A DNA stretch of 6,465 nucleotides from the IMG/VR virus record IMGVR_UViG_2547132415_000015. One strand, 5' to 3'. This document shows, in pieces, positions 1 to 6,465 of this stretch. The notes beneath the pieces were generated by a model that saw only the letters and a list, made by a program, of their open reading frames with translations, was not told the DNA's origin and did not search any database. Origin of the DNA: a virus. Its lineage: Duplodnaviria; Heunggongvirae; Uroviricota; Caudoviricetes. Made by a program: the position numbers and the translations under genes. Numbering within the stretch: position 1 is the first letter of the stretch; each line of letters starts with the position of its first letter.

Positions 1-1612
1 TTTCTGATGATTTCGCTGCCTCTTTTGAGGCCGCCGCATCCCGGGCTGAGGTGGCAGCTTCTGACGCCTTTGTGGTCGCTGCGGATGCAGAAGTGGCTGC
101 AGATTTTTGTGACGCTGCCGCATTCGTTTCTGACGTTTTCGCCGCACCGGCACTGGTAGCTGCCGCGCTTTTTGAGGACTCTGCAGCGGCAGCACTTTTT
201 GATGCTTCAGTGGCCTTTGTTGATGCCGTTCCTGCGCTGGAAGACGCTGACTGAGCCGACGTCGCGGCCTGCCCGGCTGATGTGCTGGCTGCGCGTGCTG
301 AGCCTGCAGCATCAGTCGCATGGGTTACTTCGCTCGTTTTTACTATCGCTGTCGTCACTTGCTCCAGCGAACTGCTCGCTACCTTTCCCGAACGCACAAG
401 CTGGTTTAATACTGCCGCCGCAGCGCCAGTTGTCGAATCAGCCGCATTCCCGGCACGTTGAGCTATATCGGCCAATTGCCCGCTGGTTGTCCCCAACTGA
501 TTTCCGGTAAGAATAAGAGATTTATTAAATTCGTCCTGCTCCTGAGAGCCTTTATAGTAAGCCAGTCCTAAGACCCCAACGGCTGCTGCGGCCAGGGTAA
601 AAGGATTAATTAATCCCAGCACATAAGAACCTACACCTTTGATCGCCGGGCCAATCCCACCGAACATATCTTTTAGCTGGCCGCCCTGCTGCATTAACAC
701 CATAAATGGCGACTGACCAGTGGACAACCCAACAACAATATCCGTCATTTGTGCAGGCAACATGCGCATAGCAAAAGCCGTTTGTTTTGCCGACATTCCG
801 GTTTTGCTTAATTGTGATTGAGTAACCTCAAGCTCACTCCGCATAGCACGAAGTTTTCCAGAAAGCTCCTCATACATTTCAGGAGAAAGCATCCCCTTAG
901 CTTTTGCTTCATTGAGCTGTTTCTGTTGTTCTACCAGACGATTAAAAGCAGTTCCGACAGGATCAAGTTGAGCAATCAGACGTTGCAAAGCAACAACCTG
1001 TTCATCATGCGCTTTTGCTGCTTCTCGCTCTGCCTGAGCCTCTCCGGTAAGCTCTCGCCGTGTTTCCTGTATTTTTCGGCTATAATTCTCAAACTGAGAA
1101 CCATTTATTTTCCCGGATGCAAACGCAGCATTAAGTTCATCATGCTGTTGTTCAAGATTTCTTAGCGCCGCAGCCAGAGGGTCGATCTTGTCCAGCATTC
1201 TTTGAAAGGCCTGAGCCTGCGCTTCCTGCTGGGCGGCAGCAAGTTTTCCGGCCTTCTCGGCTTCTCTCTGCGCTTGCGCAACCCCGCTCAATTCCTCTGT
1301 GGTTTCATTAAGTTTACGGACAAGAAATTCATATTCTTCTTTATCAATAAGCCCTTTATCGAAAAATTTCTTTAATTCAGAATAGCGTCGACCGACAGTA
1401 TCAATTGCGGCACCAACTGGATCAATAGCTGCTTTTAATTTTGCGAGCGCGTTCTTCTCATCTTCTGTTGCCTTAGTCACTTTCCCTGCGCTATTTGCAG
1501 CAGTTTCCCCAGCCTGCGTCATTTTGACTAATGAGGAGGTCAGATTGTCAGCATTATTTTTCGCTCCAGTGCTATCAATAATTATTGCGAGACGCGAGGT
1601 TTGCTCTGCCAT
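1..1612 (-). CDS. Phage tail tape-measure protein, N-terminal 537 codons (5' partial; gene continues beyond window start)
   Basis: ATG at 1612..1610 with an AGGAG Shine-Dalgarno 9 nt upstream (forward 'ctcct' at 1622-1626). My own translation of the minus strand stays open to position 1; this ORF is absent from the supplied track because it has no stop in the window. Residues ~281-320 read '[39 protein letters not shown]', which closely matches the conserved N-proximal block of lambda gpH as I remember it, and is followed by a hydrophobic segment '[14 protein letters not shown]'. It contains three ~75-aa coiled-coil-like repeats and an Ala/Ser-rich C-proximal tract. Confidence 0.8.
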
Positions 1613-1777
1613 TTATTAAAACTCCTGACAACAAAAAAACCACCGCGAAGTGAGTTTCAGGCGACATAATAGTAGATATAGCGATTACGAGGCCACGCAA
1701 TGCTTTTCTCCAGGAGCATCATCGATTTAATTAAAGACACCATCACATCTCTGTAACAGAGTGTACGTAATTAACAA

Positions 1778-2095
1778 CTACACACACTGCTCCTGAAAAT
1801 ACTGGTCATCCAGTGCAAAGATCACTGCTTCAAATTCATCGCGCTCAATCAATACCGGATGAGTGGCTAAATATTCATTTATCTCTGTCAGAGATAAAGG
1901 CAAAGGCACCCCAGCCATTCCAGCATAACGTCGGGCACGGGATATTACCGAATAGGCGTACAACAACTCCTTAAGCACCGGGTCTATTTCTGGTTCCGGT
2001 AACCCGTCTACAGGTTTTAAGTCCTTCATTGGCGTAAACCAGCGTTCTCCACCAATGATAATTTTCTGATTAAGAATAAACATCCATAACCTCAT
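1778..2095 (-). CDS. Hypothetical phage protein, 105 aa, acidic; sits immediately upstream of the tape-measure gene
   Basis: Complete ORF in the supplied track. ATG at 2095..2093 is preceded by 'GGGGGA' about 8 nt upstream. No motif I can assign. The position before the tape-measure gene is where tail assembly chaperones normally sit, but no frameshift partner frame exists. Confidence 0.5.
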   Translation of the reverse strand: MRLWMFILNQKIIIGGERWFTPMKDLKPVDGLPEPEIDPVLKELLYAYSVISRARRYAGMAGVPLPLSLTEINEYLATHPVLIERDEFEAVIFALDDQYFQEQCV

Positions 2096-2143
2096 TCAAT
2101 GCGTCCCCCTGTAGGGCAGTACCACAGGAGAAATAACGGAAAA

Positions 2144-2509
2144 TCAACTAATCGCCTCAGCACTGGCTTTTGCGATCACGGCAGCCGGGGAATTTTTTTT
2201 TCTGGTTATCGTAGGTGCTTCATCTGCTGCGGTAATGCTCAATTGAACCTGGATAATGTCGCTATTACCCCCATCAGGCCATTCACCTGACACCTGAACC
2301 TTCGGGAAACTGAAAGTGTATGCCCCCTCTCCATTCGAAAGCGTGAAGCTGAACGGAACTGTTTCTCCAGTCAGTGTTTTACTCCAGATTTCCCACGCGG
2401 CTTCCCGATTTTCTTTCAGTCGGTTCAGATCAACATCCAGAACGTCAGCGATTTGTTGTGCAGTCATCCGGCACGCTGCCAGAGACTCGACTTTCGAATA
2501 CGGAATCAT
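2144..2509 (-). CDS. Hypothetical phage protein, 121 aa, with an N-terminal helix-turn-helix-like segment
   Basis: Complete ORF in the supplied track. ATG at 2509..2507 is preceded by 'GGGGGTGA' 4-5 nt upstream. Residues 15-35 'MTAQQIADVLDVDLNRLKENR' resemble an HTH DNA-binding motif; the C-terminal half is beta-rich ('FSFTLSNGEGAYTFSFPKVQVSGEW'). The 5' end overlaps the 3' end of the upstream gene by 65 nt. An A9 homopolymer lies 17 codons before the stop. Confidence 0.5.
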   Translation of the reverse strand: MIPYSKVESLAACRMTAQQIADVLDVDLNRLKENREAAWEIWSKTLTGETVPFSFTLSNGEGAYTFSFPKVQVSGEWPDGGNSDIIQVQLSITAADEAPTITRKKNSPAAVIAKASAEAIS

Positions 2510-3377
2510 TTGTCACCCCCATTGATATGCAGGGTGTCTTCTTCCTGTATTTTTCGTGAAGGATTTTTACTGCAGCGTTGTTCCAGGTGACCTGATGGTG
2601 AATGCGTTTATGGCTGGCACCCATCAGTGAGATTTTTACGCACGACGGCGCATACATGACGGAGTAAAAACTTTTAACGTAGGTTCCGGAATCCAGATAC
2701 AGCTCGGTCATTCCGCCGCTGTTTTTCTGCGTCTGTTTCTGCCCTAACTGGACAGCACCGATCGTCATAAACAATTCACCACAGCGACCGAGATTCGTGT
2801 ACGTATTCACATCCTCGTTAATGCGCCCCATGAATGAGAACGGTCGATCAACCGAACAGATAAAGCTGTTCATTGCCTTGCGTTTCACCCACGAAGCATG
2901 GCCGCCATTGTCACCAAGAAAATCCCCTCCCTGCGACATAGCGATGGAAAGAGCAGGTATTGATTCGTAGTACGCCAGCATTTCAGAAAGGATCGCATCC
3001 AGTTTCCTTATCGGAAAATAGGCCTGGTCATAGTTGCGATCCACCCGAAACTGGAACTCGTGATAATCATCATCGAGCTGAATGAAGTATTTACACCCGA
3101 CCAGTTTTGCCTGGTCGAAACAGGCATTACGGGCGTAAAAAATTGAGCGGCGGTCACAGAAATTATCGGCTTCGTCAAAACGACTGGCGATATCGGCTTT
3201 GGAAAACACCAGCACCTGTTCACCAAATTCAGCCATGTACTGATGCCGTGTCTTATCTTCATCATCAACAACGATAAAAATTTTCCCGGTATAGCCAGCA
3301 CGACGCAACGTCCGGTAAGTCAGAACTTTGTCCGGTCGCCCGTGAGTCAGAATAAAGGCGCAAAAATCATCACGCAT
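2445..3377 (-). CDS. Predicted nucleotide-sugar glycosyltransferase-like protein (GT-A fold, GT2-like motifs), ~310 aa, no predicted membrane anchor
   Basis: The track ORF is 2445..3398, but the first seven codons (MVVRRRN) are just the purine-rich ribosome-binding site 'GAGGAGGAGGAA' read in another frame. The more likely start is the ATG at 3377..3375, which overlaps the upstream stop as ATGCGTGA. Numbering from the track ORF start at 3398: 'AFILTHGRPD' (res 14-23), 'KIFIVVDDED' (res 38-48), 'ARNACFDQAKLVGCKYFIQLDDDY' (res 88-112, a DxD motif; the DDD codons are at 3074-3066) and a later 'RINEDVN', together resembling the GT-A/GT2 signature layout. No PP-loop (SGGKDS) and no methyltransferase motifs (DPPY, FxGxG) were seen. 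Confidence 0.6.
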   Translation of the reverse strand: MRDDFCAFILTHGRPDKVLTYRTLRRAGYTGKIFIVVDDEDKTRHQYMAEFGEQVLVFSKADIASRFDEADNFCDRRSIFYARNACFDQAKLVGCKYFIQLDDDYHEFQFRVDRNYDQAYFPIRKLDAILSEMLAYYESIPALSIAMSQGGDFLGDNGGHASWVKRKAMNSFICSVDRPFSFMGRINEDVNTYTNLGRCGELFMTIGAVQLGQKQTQKNSGGMTELYLDSGTYVKSFYSVMYAPSCVKISLMGASHKRIHHQVTWNNAAVKILHEKYRKKTPCISMGVTNDSVFESRVSGSVPDDCTTNR

Positions 3378-4161
3378 ATTCCTCCTCCTCACCACCATGC
3401 ATGATCTCCACCATGCGCTGCGTCATCCGGACAAATCCATTTTCAATAGCCTGCTGATAATCAATGATCACCAGCGCCGACTCCTCGAAAAAACACTGAA
3501 TTTCAGCGGGGGCGTGAGCGTAATAGTCCGCAATTCTGCTGAAATTAAACACCGTGTGACGTTCTGCCGCACACAGGAGGAATTTCTCAATATCAGGCTC
3601 AAGGGACGCCGAACGTATCCGGCTGATCAGCTCCTGAGTTTTCGTATCGTCGTACAGTTCACTGATATCCGGTTTACCGCCCGACGGCTCATAAACAGGC
3701 GTATCAATTTTCGTCGTATACGGCTCCTCCTCATTTCCTGTACCGGGCAAAACATCCGTCAACAGTTCATCAATTTCTGTCGGGATGAAGCCTGTCAGGG
3801 AGACATCAAAATCAGCATTGATTAGGTCCGACAGCTCCATCCGCAACAGATCTTCATCCCAGCCAGCATTCATCGGCAGGCGATTATCTGCCAGGCGGTA
3901 CGCCTTTTTCTGCTCATCCGTCAGGCCAGACAGAACAATGACCGGAACAGAATCCATTTTGAGCATTTCAGCCGCCATAACACGACCGTGACCCGCAATA
4001 ATTTCGCCCTTTTCGTCAATCAGCACCGGATTAGTCCAGCCGAATTGCTTAATACTTTCTTCCAGTTGTGCCACCTGCTCAGTACTGTGCGTCCTGGCGT
4101 TGTGCGCATACGGTGACAATTCTTGTAATGGGCGATAGACTATCTTTAATTTCTCGCTCAT
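3370..4161 (-). CDS. ParB-like N-terminal domain (ParB/Srx superfamily) protein, 263 aa
   Basis: Complete ORF. The N-terminal ~95 aa have the ParB N-domain pattern: 'VYRPLQELSPYAHNAR', 'IKQFGWTNPVLIDEKGEIIAGHGR' (a GxxR arginine motif at res 57-60) and 'VPVIVLSGLTDEQKKAYRLADN'. The C-terminal ~160 aa are acidic and end in 'GGEEEEYA'. A weak 'AAGG' precedes the ATG. From memory this corresponds to the ynaK position of E. coli K-12 Rac, but I cannot verify that here. Confidence 0.8.
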   Translation of the reverse strand: MSEKLKIVYRPLQELSPYAHNARTHSTEQVAQLEESIKQFGWTNPVLIDEKGEIIAGHGRVMAAEMLKMDSVPVIVLSGLTDEQKKAYRLADNRLPMNAGWDEDLLRMELSDLINADFDVSLTGFIPTEIDELLTDVLPGTGNEEEPYTTKIDTPVYEPSGGKPDISELYDDTKTQELISRIRSASLEPDIEKFLLCAAERHTVFNFSRIADYYAHAPAEIQCFFEESALVIIDYQQAIENGFVRMTQRMVEIMHGGEEEEYA

Positions 4162-4178
4162 ACAGCCTTGCTTTATGA

Positions 4179-4212
4179 ATAAAACGCACCCCAGCAGCCA
4201 GTGCTACTGGGG
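4179..4212 (-). terminator. Putative rho-independent terminator downstream of trkG (minus strand)
   Basis: On the minus strand, 'CCCCAGTAGC-actg-GCTGCTGGGG' forms a 10-bp stem with one mismatch and a 4-nt loop (forward 4189-4212), followed immediately by the U-rich 'GCGTTTTATT' (forward 4188-4179). It lies 87 nt after the trkG stop and 18 nt before the ParB-like ATG. Confidence 0.5.
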
Positions 4213-4298
4213 ACGGAGGTGTTGCTGGTAAAGTTAGGTATTGGATCAATGAGTGAGTCAACATAATATTAAACTCACAATTATAAATCAGCCATATA

Positions 4299-5756
4299 TT
4301 AGGAGCGCCAAAAAAAACCTGAAAACAATATAATAACAGGATAAATTTCAAGGCGACCAAGAATCATAGCTATGCACATTAAACATTTTGCAATGTCATT
4401 AAGCACTCCGAATGACGATGCAGTAGCCCCAAAACCTAATCCCATATTATTAATACATGCAGCCACTGTTGCAAATGATGTAAGAAAATCATATCCCATA
4501 CCATTTAACACCAGTATAAAAAACACCGTGAAGAGAGTATAAAGAAAAAAGAAACTCCATACAGACCTCATTACACGATCTGTAACTATCTTCCCTCCTA
4601 CATTTACACTCAACAACGCTCTGGGATGAGAAAGCTGATTTATCTCGTGTTTGCTTTGTTTGAAAAGTATAAGAAATCGAAGTGACTTAATTCCACCACA
4701 AGTTGAACCTATACATCCCCCAAAGAAACTTGACAACAGCAAAAACACTATCGTGTGCGTGGGCCAACTTGCATAATCCTGCGTAGCTAAACCATTATCA
4801 GTGAGCATGGAGCTGGCAAGAAAAAACGAATGAATAAAACTTCCATGCAAGTCATACATACCTATATGCCAGACCTGGAAAGAGGTAACAATGATCACCC
4901 CTAAGGCTATTAACAGAAAGAAACGAAGTTCAATATCTCTGATTAAAGGTTTTATCGTTTTCCTGCTAATAACAATATACCAAAGAGTGAAGTTGAAAGC
5001 CGATAGCAGGGAAAAAGAACCAGCCACCAGCTCAACCAAATAGTTATTAAAATATCCGATACTCTCGCTATGAGTTGAGAAACCACCAAGCGAAACTGTG
5101 GAAATCCCGTGACAAATAGCATCAAACAAAGGCATTCCTGCAAGTCTATAACAGACAATACAAGCAATACCTAATAAAGAATAAGTTATCCACAGTGTCC
5201 GTGACGTATCGGCCAGGCGGGGAGTGAGTTTGTCATCCTTAAATGGCCCCGGCATTTCTGACTGATAAAGCTTTGCACCACCAATACCCAATAATGGCAA
5301 TACAGCAACCGCCAGAACAATAACTCCTAAACCACCTATAAAATTTAACTGTGACCGATAGTACAAATATGCCCGAGGTAATGAACTAACATCATCAATT
5401 ACAGTTGCTCCTGTTGTTGTTATTCCAGAAACCCCTTCAAACAGAGCATCAATGAACGTTAAATTAAGTTCTGAGTCAATCCATAAAGGGAATGCACTAA
5501 TAACAGAAAACAAAATCCAAAACATTACAATTATAATAAACCCATCACGGGTACGTAATTGAATGCCAGATTTCTTAGTTGTATACCACGCTCCGCCACC
5601 AATGCAAAAAAATATAACGAAAGTTATTAAGAAAACGAACAGGCTTTTTTCTTTATAAAACAATGCTACAACCATTGGTGGCAACATTGAAAGACTATAG
5701 AGCCAAACCAGGAACCCACACATATGAGTAACAACTCTTACATGAGATGTATTCAT
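4299..5756 (-). CDS. trkG: TrkH/TrkG-family potassium uptake membrane protein (prophage moron), 485 aa
   Basis: Polytopic membrane protein with repeated selectivity-filter-like glycine motifs ('TTTGATV', 'GGLGV', 'SLGGFS', 'GSTCGG', 'NMGLGFG') typical of TrkH/KtrB. I recognise the translation from 'MNTSHVRVVTHMCGF...' as E. coli Rac prophage TrkG from memory. The track ORF begins at a TTG at 5774; the ATG at 5756 gives the 485-aa product. The gene is visibly AT-rich compared with its neighbours. Confidence 0.9.
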   Translation of the reverse strand: MNTSHVRVVTHMCGFLVWLYSLSMLPPMVVALFYKEKSLFVFLITFVIFFCIGGGAWYTTKKSGIQLRTRDGFIIIVMFWILFSVISAFPLWIDSELNLTFIDALFEGVSGITTTGATVIDDVSSLPRAYLYYRSQLNFIGGLGVIVLAVAVLPLLGIGGAKLYQSEMPGPFKDDKLTPRLADTSRTLWITYSLLGIACIVCYRLAGMPLFDAICHGISTVSLGGFSTHSESIGYFNNYLVELVAGSFSLLSAFNFTLWYIVISRKTIKPLIRDIELRFFLLIALGVIIVTSFQVWHIGMYDLHGSFIHSFFLASSMLTDNGLATQDYASWPTHTIVFLLLSSFFGGCIGSTCGGIKSLRFLILFKQSKHEINQLSHPRALLSVNVGGKIVTDRVMRSVWSFFFLYTLFTVFFILVLNGMGYDFLTSFATVAACINNMGLGFGATASSFGVLNDIAKCLMCIAMILGRLEIYPVIILFSGFFWRS

Positions 5757-5830
5757 ATCTAAATATTCTTTCAATTATAACCACCTTGCTGCAATATTAT
5801 GATTATACTGTATAAAATTTAACTCCTCTT
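5757..5830 (-). promoter_or_regulatory. AT-rich putative promoter region for trkG
   Basis: Two minus-strand TATAAT hexamers (forward 5779-5774 and 5807-5802) lie upstream of the trkG ATG, but neither has a well-spaced -35 element (the TTGCAG at 5794-5789 is only 9 nt from the proximal -10). Call rests on AT-richness and the -10 matches only. Confidence 0.2.
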
Positions 5831-5893
5831 AGATCTTACTTCACTGTTCCTTATGAAACAATCATCAAAATGAATCATATTGTAGTTAAGATT

Positions 5894-6358
5894 TTACTTT
5901 AAACACTGCTCGGTTATGTATTGCTGAGCACCTTCAAGTTGGGCCTGCATCATTACCAGTCGTTCCCGGAGGGTGAAATAATCCCGTTCAGCGGTGTCTG
6001 CCAGTCGGGGGGAGGCTGCATTATCCACGCCGGAGGCCGTGGTGGCTTCACGCACTGACTGACAGACTGCTTTGATGTGCAACCGACGACGACCAGCGGC
6101 AACATCATCACGCAGAGCATCATTTTCAGCTTTCGCATCAGCTAACTCCTTCGTGTATTTTGCATCGAGCGCAGCAACATCACGCTGACGCATCTGCATG
6201 TCAGTAATTGCCGCGTTCGCTAGCTTCAGTTCTCTGGCATTTTTGTCGCGCTGGGCTTTGTAGGCGATTGCGTTATCACGGTAATGATTGACCGCCCATG
6301 ACAGGCTGACGATGATGCAGATAATCAGAGCGGATATAATCGCGGTTACTCTGCTCAC
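5894..6358 (-). CDS. Rz: Rz-family i-spanin (inner-membrane spanin subunit)
   Basis: The translation '[28 protein letters not shown]...[27 protein letters not shown]...' is near-identical to lambda Rz / E. coli RzpD as I remember them: N-terminal transmembrane segment followed by a coiled-coil periplasmic domain. Favoured start is the GTG at 6358..6356, preceded by 'GGGGG' 6 nt upstream and overlapping the lysozyme stop as GTGA; the track uses an upstream in-frame GTG at 6370. Confidence 0.85.
5953..6138 (-). CDS. Rz1: Rz1-family o-spanin (outer-membrane lipoprotein), embedded in a different frame within Rz
   Basis: '[20 protein letters not shown]|TSKQ...' has a lipoprotein signal with lipobox 'VVGC' and a proline-rich mature part ('[18 protein letters not shown]'), matching lambda Rz1 from memory. 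ATG at 6138 is preceded by 'AAGGAG' 7 nt upstream. The ORF lies entirely inside the Rz coding region. Confidence 0.85.
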
Positions 6359-6465
6359 TGTTGCCCCCACAAACAGACTTCACGCTCAATCTCACGACGA
6401 GTCATCAGGCCTTTCCATTGCTTACCGCCAGCGTATGCCCAGCGACGTAGCTGGTCACATGCGCC
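6355..6465 (-). CDS. Phage lysozyme / endolysin (T4-type, GH24-like), C-terminal 36 codons (3' partial; gene starts beyond window end)
   Basis: Minus-strand translation from the window edge reads '[36 protein letters not shown]' with TGA at 6357..6355. This matches the C-terminus of the lambdoid-prophage lysozymes of E. coli (RrrD-type) as I remember it. It sits immediately upstream of Rz/Rz1, the canonical lysis-cassette order. Confidence 0.75.

Follow-up and report, generated by a model that had tools for sequence, protein, structure and literature searches.

How did the lysis genes of a lambdoid prophage come to lie about four kilobases from the start of a tape-measure gene, with no packaging or head module in between? 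The question was raised by a 6,465-bp Caudoviricetes sequence (IMG/VR record IMGVR_UViG_2547132415_000015), analysed here at its full length and called the window, which is the entire draft contig AQEI01000004.1 (assembly GCA_000354915.1) in reversed orientation, its own flanks being beyond reach. The minus strand carried all of the coding potential, and every gene and signal described below lies on that strand. From the stop codon of Rz (5894) to the ATG of the tape-measure gene (1612), the interval 1613-5893 measured 4,281 bp, matching the estimate of about 4.2 kb in a preliminary description made from the letters alone. As described there, it contained a transporter gene (trkG), a ParB-like gene and a glycosyltransferase gene of the TAGT/GREB1 type, both intact, and two small open reading frames (ORFs). 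Genes for terminase, portal and capsid were not detected in any frame of the interval. We consider it highly probable that the window represents a Rac-type prophage reduced by at least three deletions at short microhomologies, virion-incompetent by gene content, in which the trkG block has survived.

Sequence comparison identified the window as late-region DNA from a lambdoid prophage of Escherichia coli, of the Rac type. When Rac of K-12 MG1655 (NC_000913.3) was aligned to it by blastn, the identity was 99.3% over 2,431 bp from rzpR' through rzoR and trkG to ynaK', and 99.8% over 1,324 bp from downstream of ydaY to ynaA. This near-identity, together with the late-region synteny Rz/Rz1-trkG-ynaK...ynaA-stfR, places the window within Rac. 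The lysis-trkG-tail juxtaposition that the preliminary description had named for K-12 Rac was thus confirmed by alignment.

The native arrangement could be read from structurally complete Rac-like prophages. Comparison loci bear L numbers here: L009 is E. coli WP5-S18-ESBL-07 (AP022159.1), L007 and L008 stand for GenBank ON470595.1, a prophage record delimited computationally, and L005 is strain AR_0061 (CP020058.1). L009 and ON470595.1 share the order holin, endolysin, Rz/Rz1, trkG, ParB, glycosyltransferase and a terS-like ORF of 69 aa (phrog_309), followed by terS, terL, portal (DUF4055), minor head protein, DUF6651, P22-type major capsid protein, five small ORFs, tail terminator, tube (PF18906), YdaY (G/GT chaperone), tape measure, M-L-K-I-J, lom, stfR and then tfaR. 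As trkG, ParB and the glycosyltransferase gene sit between the lysis and terminase genes in these complete relatives, their position is native and not a product of deletion. The gene order regarded as unusual in the preliminary description therefore proved to be ordinary as far as the glycosyltransferase gene, and the deletion affected what follows. The complete prophages (WP5-S18-ESBL-07, strain 042 and ON470595.1) were collinear with the window from the lysis genes through trkG, ParB and glycosyltransferase to the 69-aa ORF (99.2% identity), and again over the 3' end of the tube gene, the T frame of the chaperone and the 5' end of the tape-measure gene (97-98.6%). Unlike the window, they carry a 9.6-kb packaging/head block, ydaY, a full-length tape-measure gene and M-L-K-I-J-lom; the full-length tape-measure gene of L009 has an internal stop.

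The junctions were mapped to the base pair by pairwise blastn against the complete references and four other strains; L007, L009, L002 and L003 served for junction C. Deletion C (junction at 2400-2403, GCTT microhomology, 9,638 bp missing) joined codon 23 of the 69-aa terS-like ORF to codon 236 of the tube gene, exactly where L007 and L009 have their head block. It removed terS, terL, the genes for portal, minor head protein, scaffold and capsid, four connector ORFs, the tail terminator gene and tube residues 1-235. What was left is a fusion ORF of 107 aa (2144-2467; 121 aa from the ATG at 2509), consisting of residues 1-23 of the terS-like protein and residues 236-320 of the tail tube (PF18906), and matching both phrog_309 (terminase small subunit) and phrog_290 (tail protein). 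The head block is accordingly 9.6 kb long, and not the 15-20 kb expected in the preliminary description.

Deletion B (junction at 2000-2001, TA microhomology) removed 450 bp, or exactly 150 codons, comprising nearly all of ydaY, the slippery site A AAA AAG and the start of the T frame. The resulting ORF of 101 aa (1778-2083; 105 aa from the ATG at 2095) joins residues 1-28 of YdaY (gpG-like, long form) to the T-like chaperone frame; it matched phrog_1189 and phrog_313 (tail assembly chaperone), and its match to PF23812 was weak, below the cut-off of that family. Deletions B and C together (450 and 9,638 bp) account for the 10,088-bp difference between the window and L009, in which the interval from the Rz stop to the tape-measure start measures 14,369 bp. 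In Rac-like phages YdaY is the tail assembly chaperone of the gpG type, and phrog_313 spans YdaY and the downstream frame (L007 47203-47960). In the relatives a -1 frame overlaps the 3' end of ydaY by 37 nt, and the slippery heptamer A AAA AAG is located at L007 47640. As both this site and nearly the whole G part were lost at junction B, the gpG/gpGT frameshift system of the chaperone has been destroyed in the window.

Deletion A (junction at 324-326, GTT microhomology) lies within what looked like an intact tape-measure gene. Only residues 1-430 of 1,077 were present (327-1612, with the ATG at 1612-1610; PF06791, E = 2.3e-64), and this fragment was 99.9% identical to the tape-measure gene of L001. 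Residue 430 is fused to residue 143 of StfR, and the L009 layout gives an estimate of about 9.0 kb for the missing DNA. Lost are the tape measure from residue 431 onwards (the C-terminal 60%), M, L, K, I, J, lom and the part of StfR that spans residues 1-142. The interior of stfR, rich in Ala, Ser and Thr, occupies positions 1-323 (93-97% identical to stfR of L002, L004 and L006) in frame with the tape-measure fragment; the window edge falls inside stfR, and the ORF 1612-1 stays open.

The three deletions summed to about 19 kb of morphogenesis DNA missing from the window. All three junctions lie inside coding frames, six in number, with microhomologies of 2-4 bp, and left truncated or fused fragments. 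Both small ORFs could be recognized as fusion remnants, because their residues mapped to two partners and their PHROG matches covered both. They and the "tape measure" are chimeric remnants, which should be annotated as pseudogene fragments and not as hypothetical proteins. Lysis genes do run into tail genes in the window, as the preliminary description stated, but the latter are all fragments. Its reading as a deletion-type defective prophage held: morphogenesis genes are gone from the places where L007 and L009 have them, and the breakpoints lie inside genes. The alignments to K-12 and to intact Rac-like prophages that it had proposed yielded these endpoints and located the head block of intact relatives at junction C.

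All three junctions preserved the native frames of both partners, an outcome with a chance of about 1 in 27. The idea that Rac deletions in general tend to be in frame was considered and rejected, since only about one quarter of the junctions in other strains were in frame, which is consistent with chance. The in-frame state of the three window junctions is probably a coincidence.

Two long NCBI contigs from independent assemblies, L012 (164.7 kb) and L013 (60.8 kb), matched window positions 1-6079 without interruption (99.97-99.98% identity over 6,079 bp) and thus carry A, B and C. The whole remnant could be read in them between ttcA and ynaE/uspF, and it comprised an integrase fragment fused to the interior of Rz, trkG, ParB, glycosyltransferase, fusions C and B, a tape measure::StfR chimera of 875 aa, tfaR, pinR and ynaE. 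No packaging or head gene was found in the entire remnant. The preliminary description had allowed that the structural genes might lie elsewhere; this was contradicted in L012 and L013, where no head gene occurs from ttcA to uspF, while the upstream part of the window strain's own prophage is outside view. That strain differs upstream from L012 and L013, as it retains the full Rz and the end of R. The early region with recE/recT, racR, kilR and sieB is present in L001, L004 and L009 and deleted in L012 and L013, where the integrase-Rz fusion implies that the entire early region was lost. In both contigs stfR has also lost another stretch of about 1.4 kb from its interior and is frameshifted there, and the chimera terminates as a result (L012 12083-13400).

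K-12 Rac (rzpR-rzoR-trkG-ynaK-ydaY-ynaA-lomR::IS5-stfR-tfaR-pinR, from ttcA to ynaE/uspF) is the same element, and the near-identical relatives of the window occupy the same chromosomal locus. It shows the same lysis-trkG-tail remnant juxtaposition, but its breakpoints are independent. In K-12, codon ~85 of ynaK is joined to the ydaY region, so that the counterpart of window 2002-3907 (ParB C-terminus, glycosyltransferase and tube remnant) is missing, whereas ydaY, deleted in the window, is kept. The K-12 tape-measure gene is cut at the position of window 678 and followed by lomR with the insertion sequence IS5, in contrast to the fusion with stfR in the window. K-12 has a 99-aa 5'-truncated rzpR pseudogene against the 154-aa Rz of the window, a YnaK of 87 aa against 263 aa, and a YnaA of 342 aa against 430 tape-measure residues. 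The preliminary description had suspected that ORFs truncated in K-12 are intact in the window; this applied to Rz, ParB and the glycosyltransferase, and the reverse was found for ydaY. We also observed that the N-terminus of the K-12 'YdaY' (MSRS...) stems from the ynaK::ydaY deletion junction and not from the native gene.

The remnant in AR_0061 shares junction C with the window exactly (60 of 60 bases) and is 100% identical over trkG, ParB and glycosyltransferase. In contrast to the window, it keeps ydaY and hence lacks junction B, and it is deleted from 2 nt past the window's junction-B breakpoint to the 3' end of stfR, leaving no tape-measure fragment. A gene for a GH24 lysozyme, not rrrD, is located upstream of its Rz.

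Within the surviving block, trkG (4299-5756) encodes an intact Trk-type K+ transporter of 485 aa (PF02386, E = 1e-144), differing from the TrkG of L009 in one residue. Its guanine-plus-cytosine (GC) content was 0.33-0.41, compared with 0.48-0.54 in the flanks, or about 0.37 against about 0.50; 38% for trkG against 53% for trkH has been reported (PMC9898762). It lies between Rz and ParB/terS also in the structurally complete L007 and L009. By composition and position trkG is thus classed as a low-GC phage moron, presumably dispensable for the phage. A strong terminator-like hairpin just 3' of its stop codon (4189-4212; 10-bp stem with 7 GC pairs, then a T-run) was recognized as a consensus match only. 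The same applies to a promoter-like site upstream (5874-5903; TTTAAA-18-TATGAT, 9/12); as the total of such sites across the window did not exceed that in shuffled sequences, it is weak evidence. According to earlier work, trkG is a functional foreign gene for a Na+-dependent K+ transporter, expressed in K-12 and partly repressed by H-NS (PMC9898762), and conservation within Rac, whose size and content differ among strains, is highest for trkG and recE (PMC5700373). Population counts were taken over 5,426 complete E. coli genomes; trkG was found in 1,551 of them and at least 80% of the 9.6-kb head block in 708, indicating that full and decayed forms are both common. At least 80% of the segment from the tube through ydaY to the tape-measure start was present in 711.

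The adjoining pair of genes overlaps by 8 nt (2445-4161). The ParB/Srx-like protein of 263 aa (3370-4161; PF02195; phrog_620, E = 1.9e-90) is the intact, full-length form of K-12 YnaK, and the TAGT/GREB1-related glycosyltransferase of 310 aa (2445-3377; PF20691, E = 1.4e-34; phrog_842, E = 6e-104) is likewise intact. All of the complete Rac-like prophages examined have this pair after trkG and before terS. A literature search for a ParB-TAGT-GREB1 prophage module found nothing in the library searched. RefSeq lists ynaK of AR_0061 (L005 15371-16162) as a truncated pseudogene, yet the gene is 100% identical to the 263-aa ParB ORF of the window and translates without interruption; this call is likely an annotation artefact arising from the short K-12 YnaK reference.

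Could the junctions have arisen in assembly, in a chimeric short draft contig collapsed across repeats? The source is a draft contig of only 6,465 bp, both ends of which fall in genes repeated among prophages. In addition, 60-bp queries for junctions A and B had no match in the 5,426 complete genomes, and exact-pattern scans for them gave no match in two large contig collections, the species-representative genomes and the JGI metagenomes. Against an artefact stands the occurrence of A, B and C together in the two independent long contigs described above, and the recurrence of A and B in several Logan assemblies of other runs. Junction A was found in L012-L016, junction B in L011-L017, which include a metagenome scaffold from ENA, and junction C in L012-L015 and L017 as well as in one of the 5,426 complete genomes, the closed genome of AR_0061 (60-bp junction query). 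The exact 101-aa protein of fusion B was encoded on 16 other contigs, and the partners at the junctions are not repeats of one another. On this distribution of sequences the junctions are judged genuine and common to a lineage, and an assembly artefact is exceedingly improbable. It is also very unlikely that the compact order is native, for example in a satellite-like element borrowing the capsid of a helper, or that a head module lies elsewhere in the same prophage. Nothing directly favours either idea, except that the window by itself shows no flanks. Fragments of the terS-like, tube, chaperone, tape-measure and stfR genes, each cut within the gene, argue against both, as do relatives whose flanking DNA is 97-99% identical and which carry the head block exactly at the junction, and the near-identical relatives with a full ttcA-uspF remnant devoid of head genes. 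A phage satellite or capsid-borrowing element was rejected, as the window holds cut remnants of its own morphogenesis genes. We therefore retain the reading of a Rac prophage decayed by deletion, in which at least three events of illegitimate recombination (C, B and A), each at a microhomology of 2-4 bp, would have cut down the late region and spared Rz/Rz1, trkG and the adjoining ParB-glycosyltransferase pair. Since terminase, portal, capsid, the G/GT chaperone and the tail tip are absent, and neither the tube nor the tape measure is whole, the element would be incapable of building or filling a virion alone.

What has maintained the surviving segment is a separate matter. Because trkG is intact, low in GC, followed by a terminator-like hairpin, and functional and conserved according to the cited studies (PMC9898762, PMC5700373), the persistence of the segment is likely due to selection on trkG, with its immediate neighbours carried along. 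Selection reaching beyond trkG, under which the ParB and glycosyltransferase genes, and possibly the in-frame fusions too, would have been kept for the benefit of the host (e.g. by DNA modification or phage defence), appears unlikely. Its support comes from the uninterrupted ParB and glycosyltransferase genes, with 3 and 2 substitutions relative to L009, from the presence of at least 80% of the pair in 889 complete genomes compared with 708 for the head block, and from the in-frame state of all three window junctions. The pair is, however, gone from K-12 and its many relatives, and the glycosyltransferase gene is truncated in some other strains (L003). It lies at most 140 bp from trkG, so hitch-hiking suffices, and the two intact genes may merely be riding beside trkG; the low proportion of in-frame junctions in other strains likewise speaks against selection on the fusions. 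Relative to a complete relative, 1-13 codons differed per gene, too few for a selection test and hence for testing constraint on the pair. The pair's place in every complete prophage examined, and its retention in more E. coli genomes than the head module, prompt a further proposal, in which the pair might be a functional DNA-modification or anti-phage module kept by the host in its own right. Selection or a recombination hot spot, and not chance, would then lie behind the breakpoint clusters around ydaY (described below) and the three fusions in frame; we regard this as slightly more doubtful still. Decay by deletion around a retained trkG remains our interpretation, and three points weigh against it. 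The rest of the source strain's Rac and genome is outside the contig, so that a head module elsewhere is formally possible; non-inducibility is an inference from gene content; and the data do not decide between selection on trkG and its chance survival, as the substitutions are too few for a ratio of nonsynonymous to synonymous rates (dN/dS).

The defectiveness of Rac, its trkG cargo and its strain-variable content are already known (PMC5700373, PMC9898762 and the K-12 annotation), and the window is one more deletion allele of Rac, found in several public assemblies. It exemplifies an ordinary, documented type of prophage decay with little significance past annotation; the useful yield is the base-pair map of three deletions and the native place of the trkG-ParB-glycosyltransferase block between the lysis and terminase genes.

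The combination of junctions varied among remnants. AR_0061 has C but not B, the metagenome scaffold L011 has B but neither C nor A, and the window has both B and C, only 400 bp apart, a pattern implying recombination between Rac variants or recurrent deletion. Other strains have their own, different deletions and insertion-sequence insertions at the Rac locus. In L009 coordinates, independent breakpoints clustered on both sides of ydaY, at 30028-30055 (L001 at 30028, window at 30038, K-12 at 30053) and at 30489-30491 (window at 30489 and AR_0061 at 30491, with opposite sides kept). These clusters may represent a hot spot or a sampling effect; sampling of breakpoints over the tube-ydaY-tape measure region yielded intact copies and clones of K-12 almost exclusively. 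The complete Rac-like prophages also carry an annotated anti-phage pair, iteA/iteS (ATPase and S8 peptidase), in the early region (L009 8816-12209, L007 26064-29457), and this pair is missing from K-12 Rac.

An Rfam scan of the whole window matched no RNA family. On the lysis side, the window edge falls inside the endolysin gene R, of which the last 36 codons are present (6355-6465); they matched the rrrD type of L002, L003 and L009, and a 36-aa Phage_lysozyme fragment is called on the source contig. The i-spanin Rz is of full length (5894-6358, or to 6370; 154 aa; PF03245, E = 7.6e-53) and identical to Rz of L009 at 148 of 155 aligned positions, the stop included. Embedded in it is the o-spanin lipoprotein Rz1 of 61 aa (5953-6138; PF06085, E = 2.6e-19), the counterpart of K-12 rzoR. 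Rz starts with GTG in the window and with ATG in the relatives, and four codons further upstream there is another GTG in the same frame (6355-6370). In R, whose last Gln codon overlaps the site, the ATG-to-GTG change is silent (CAA to CAG), and the GTG start may reduce translation of Rz. The R/Rz overlap (about 6357-6358) also coincides with a mosaic boundary, upstream of which L001 and AR_0061 have a GH24 lysozyme and a lambda-type holin, whereas the window is of the rrrD/essD type.

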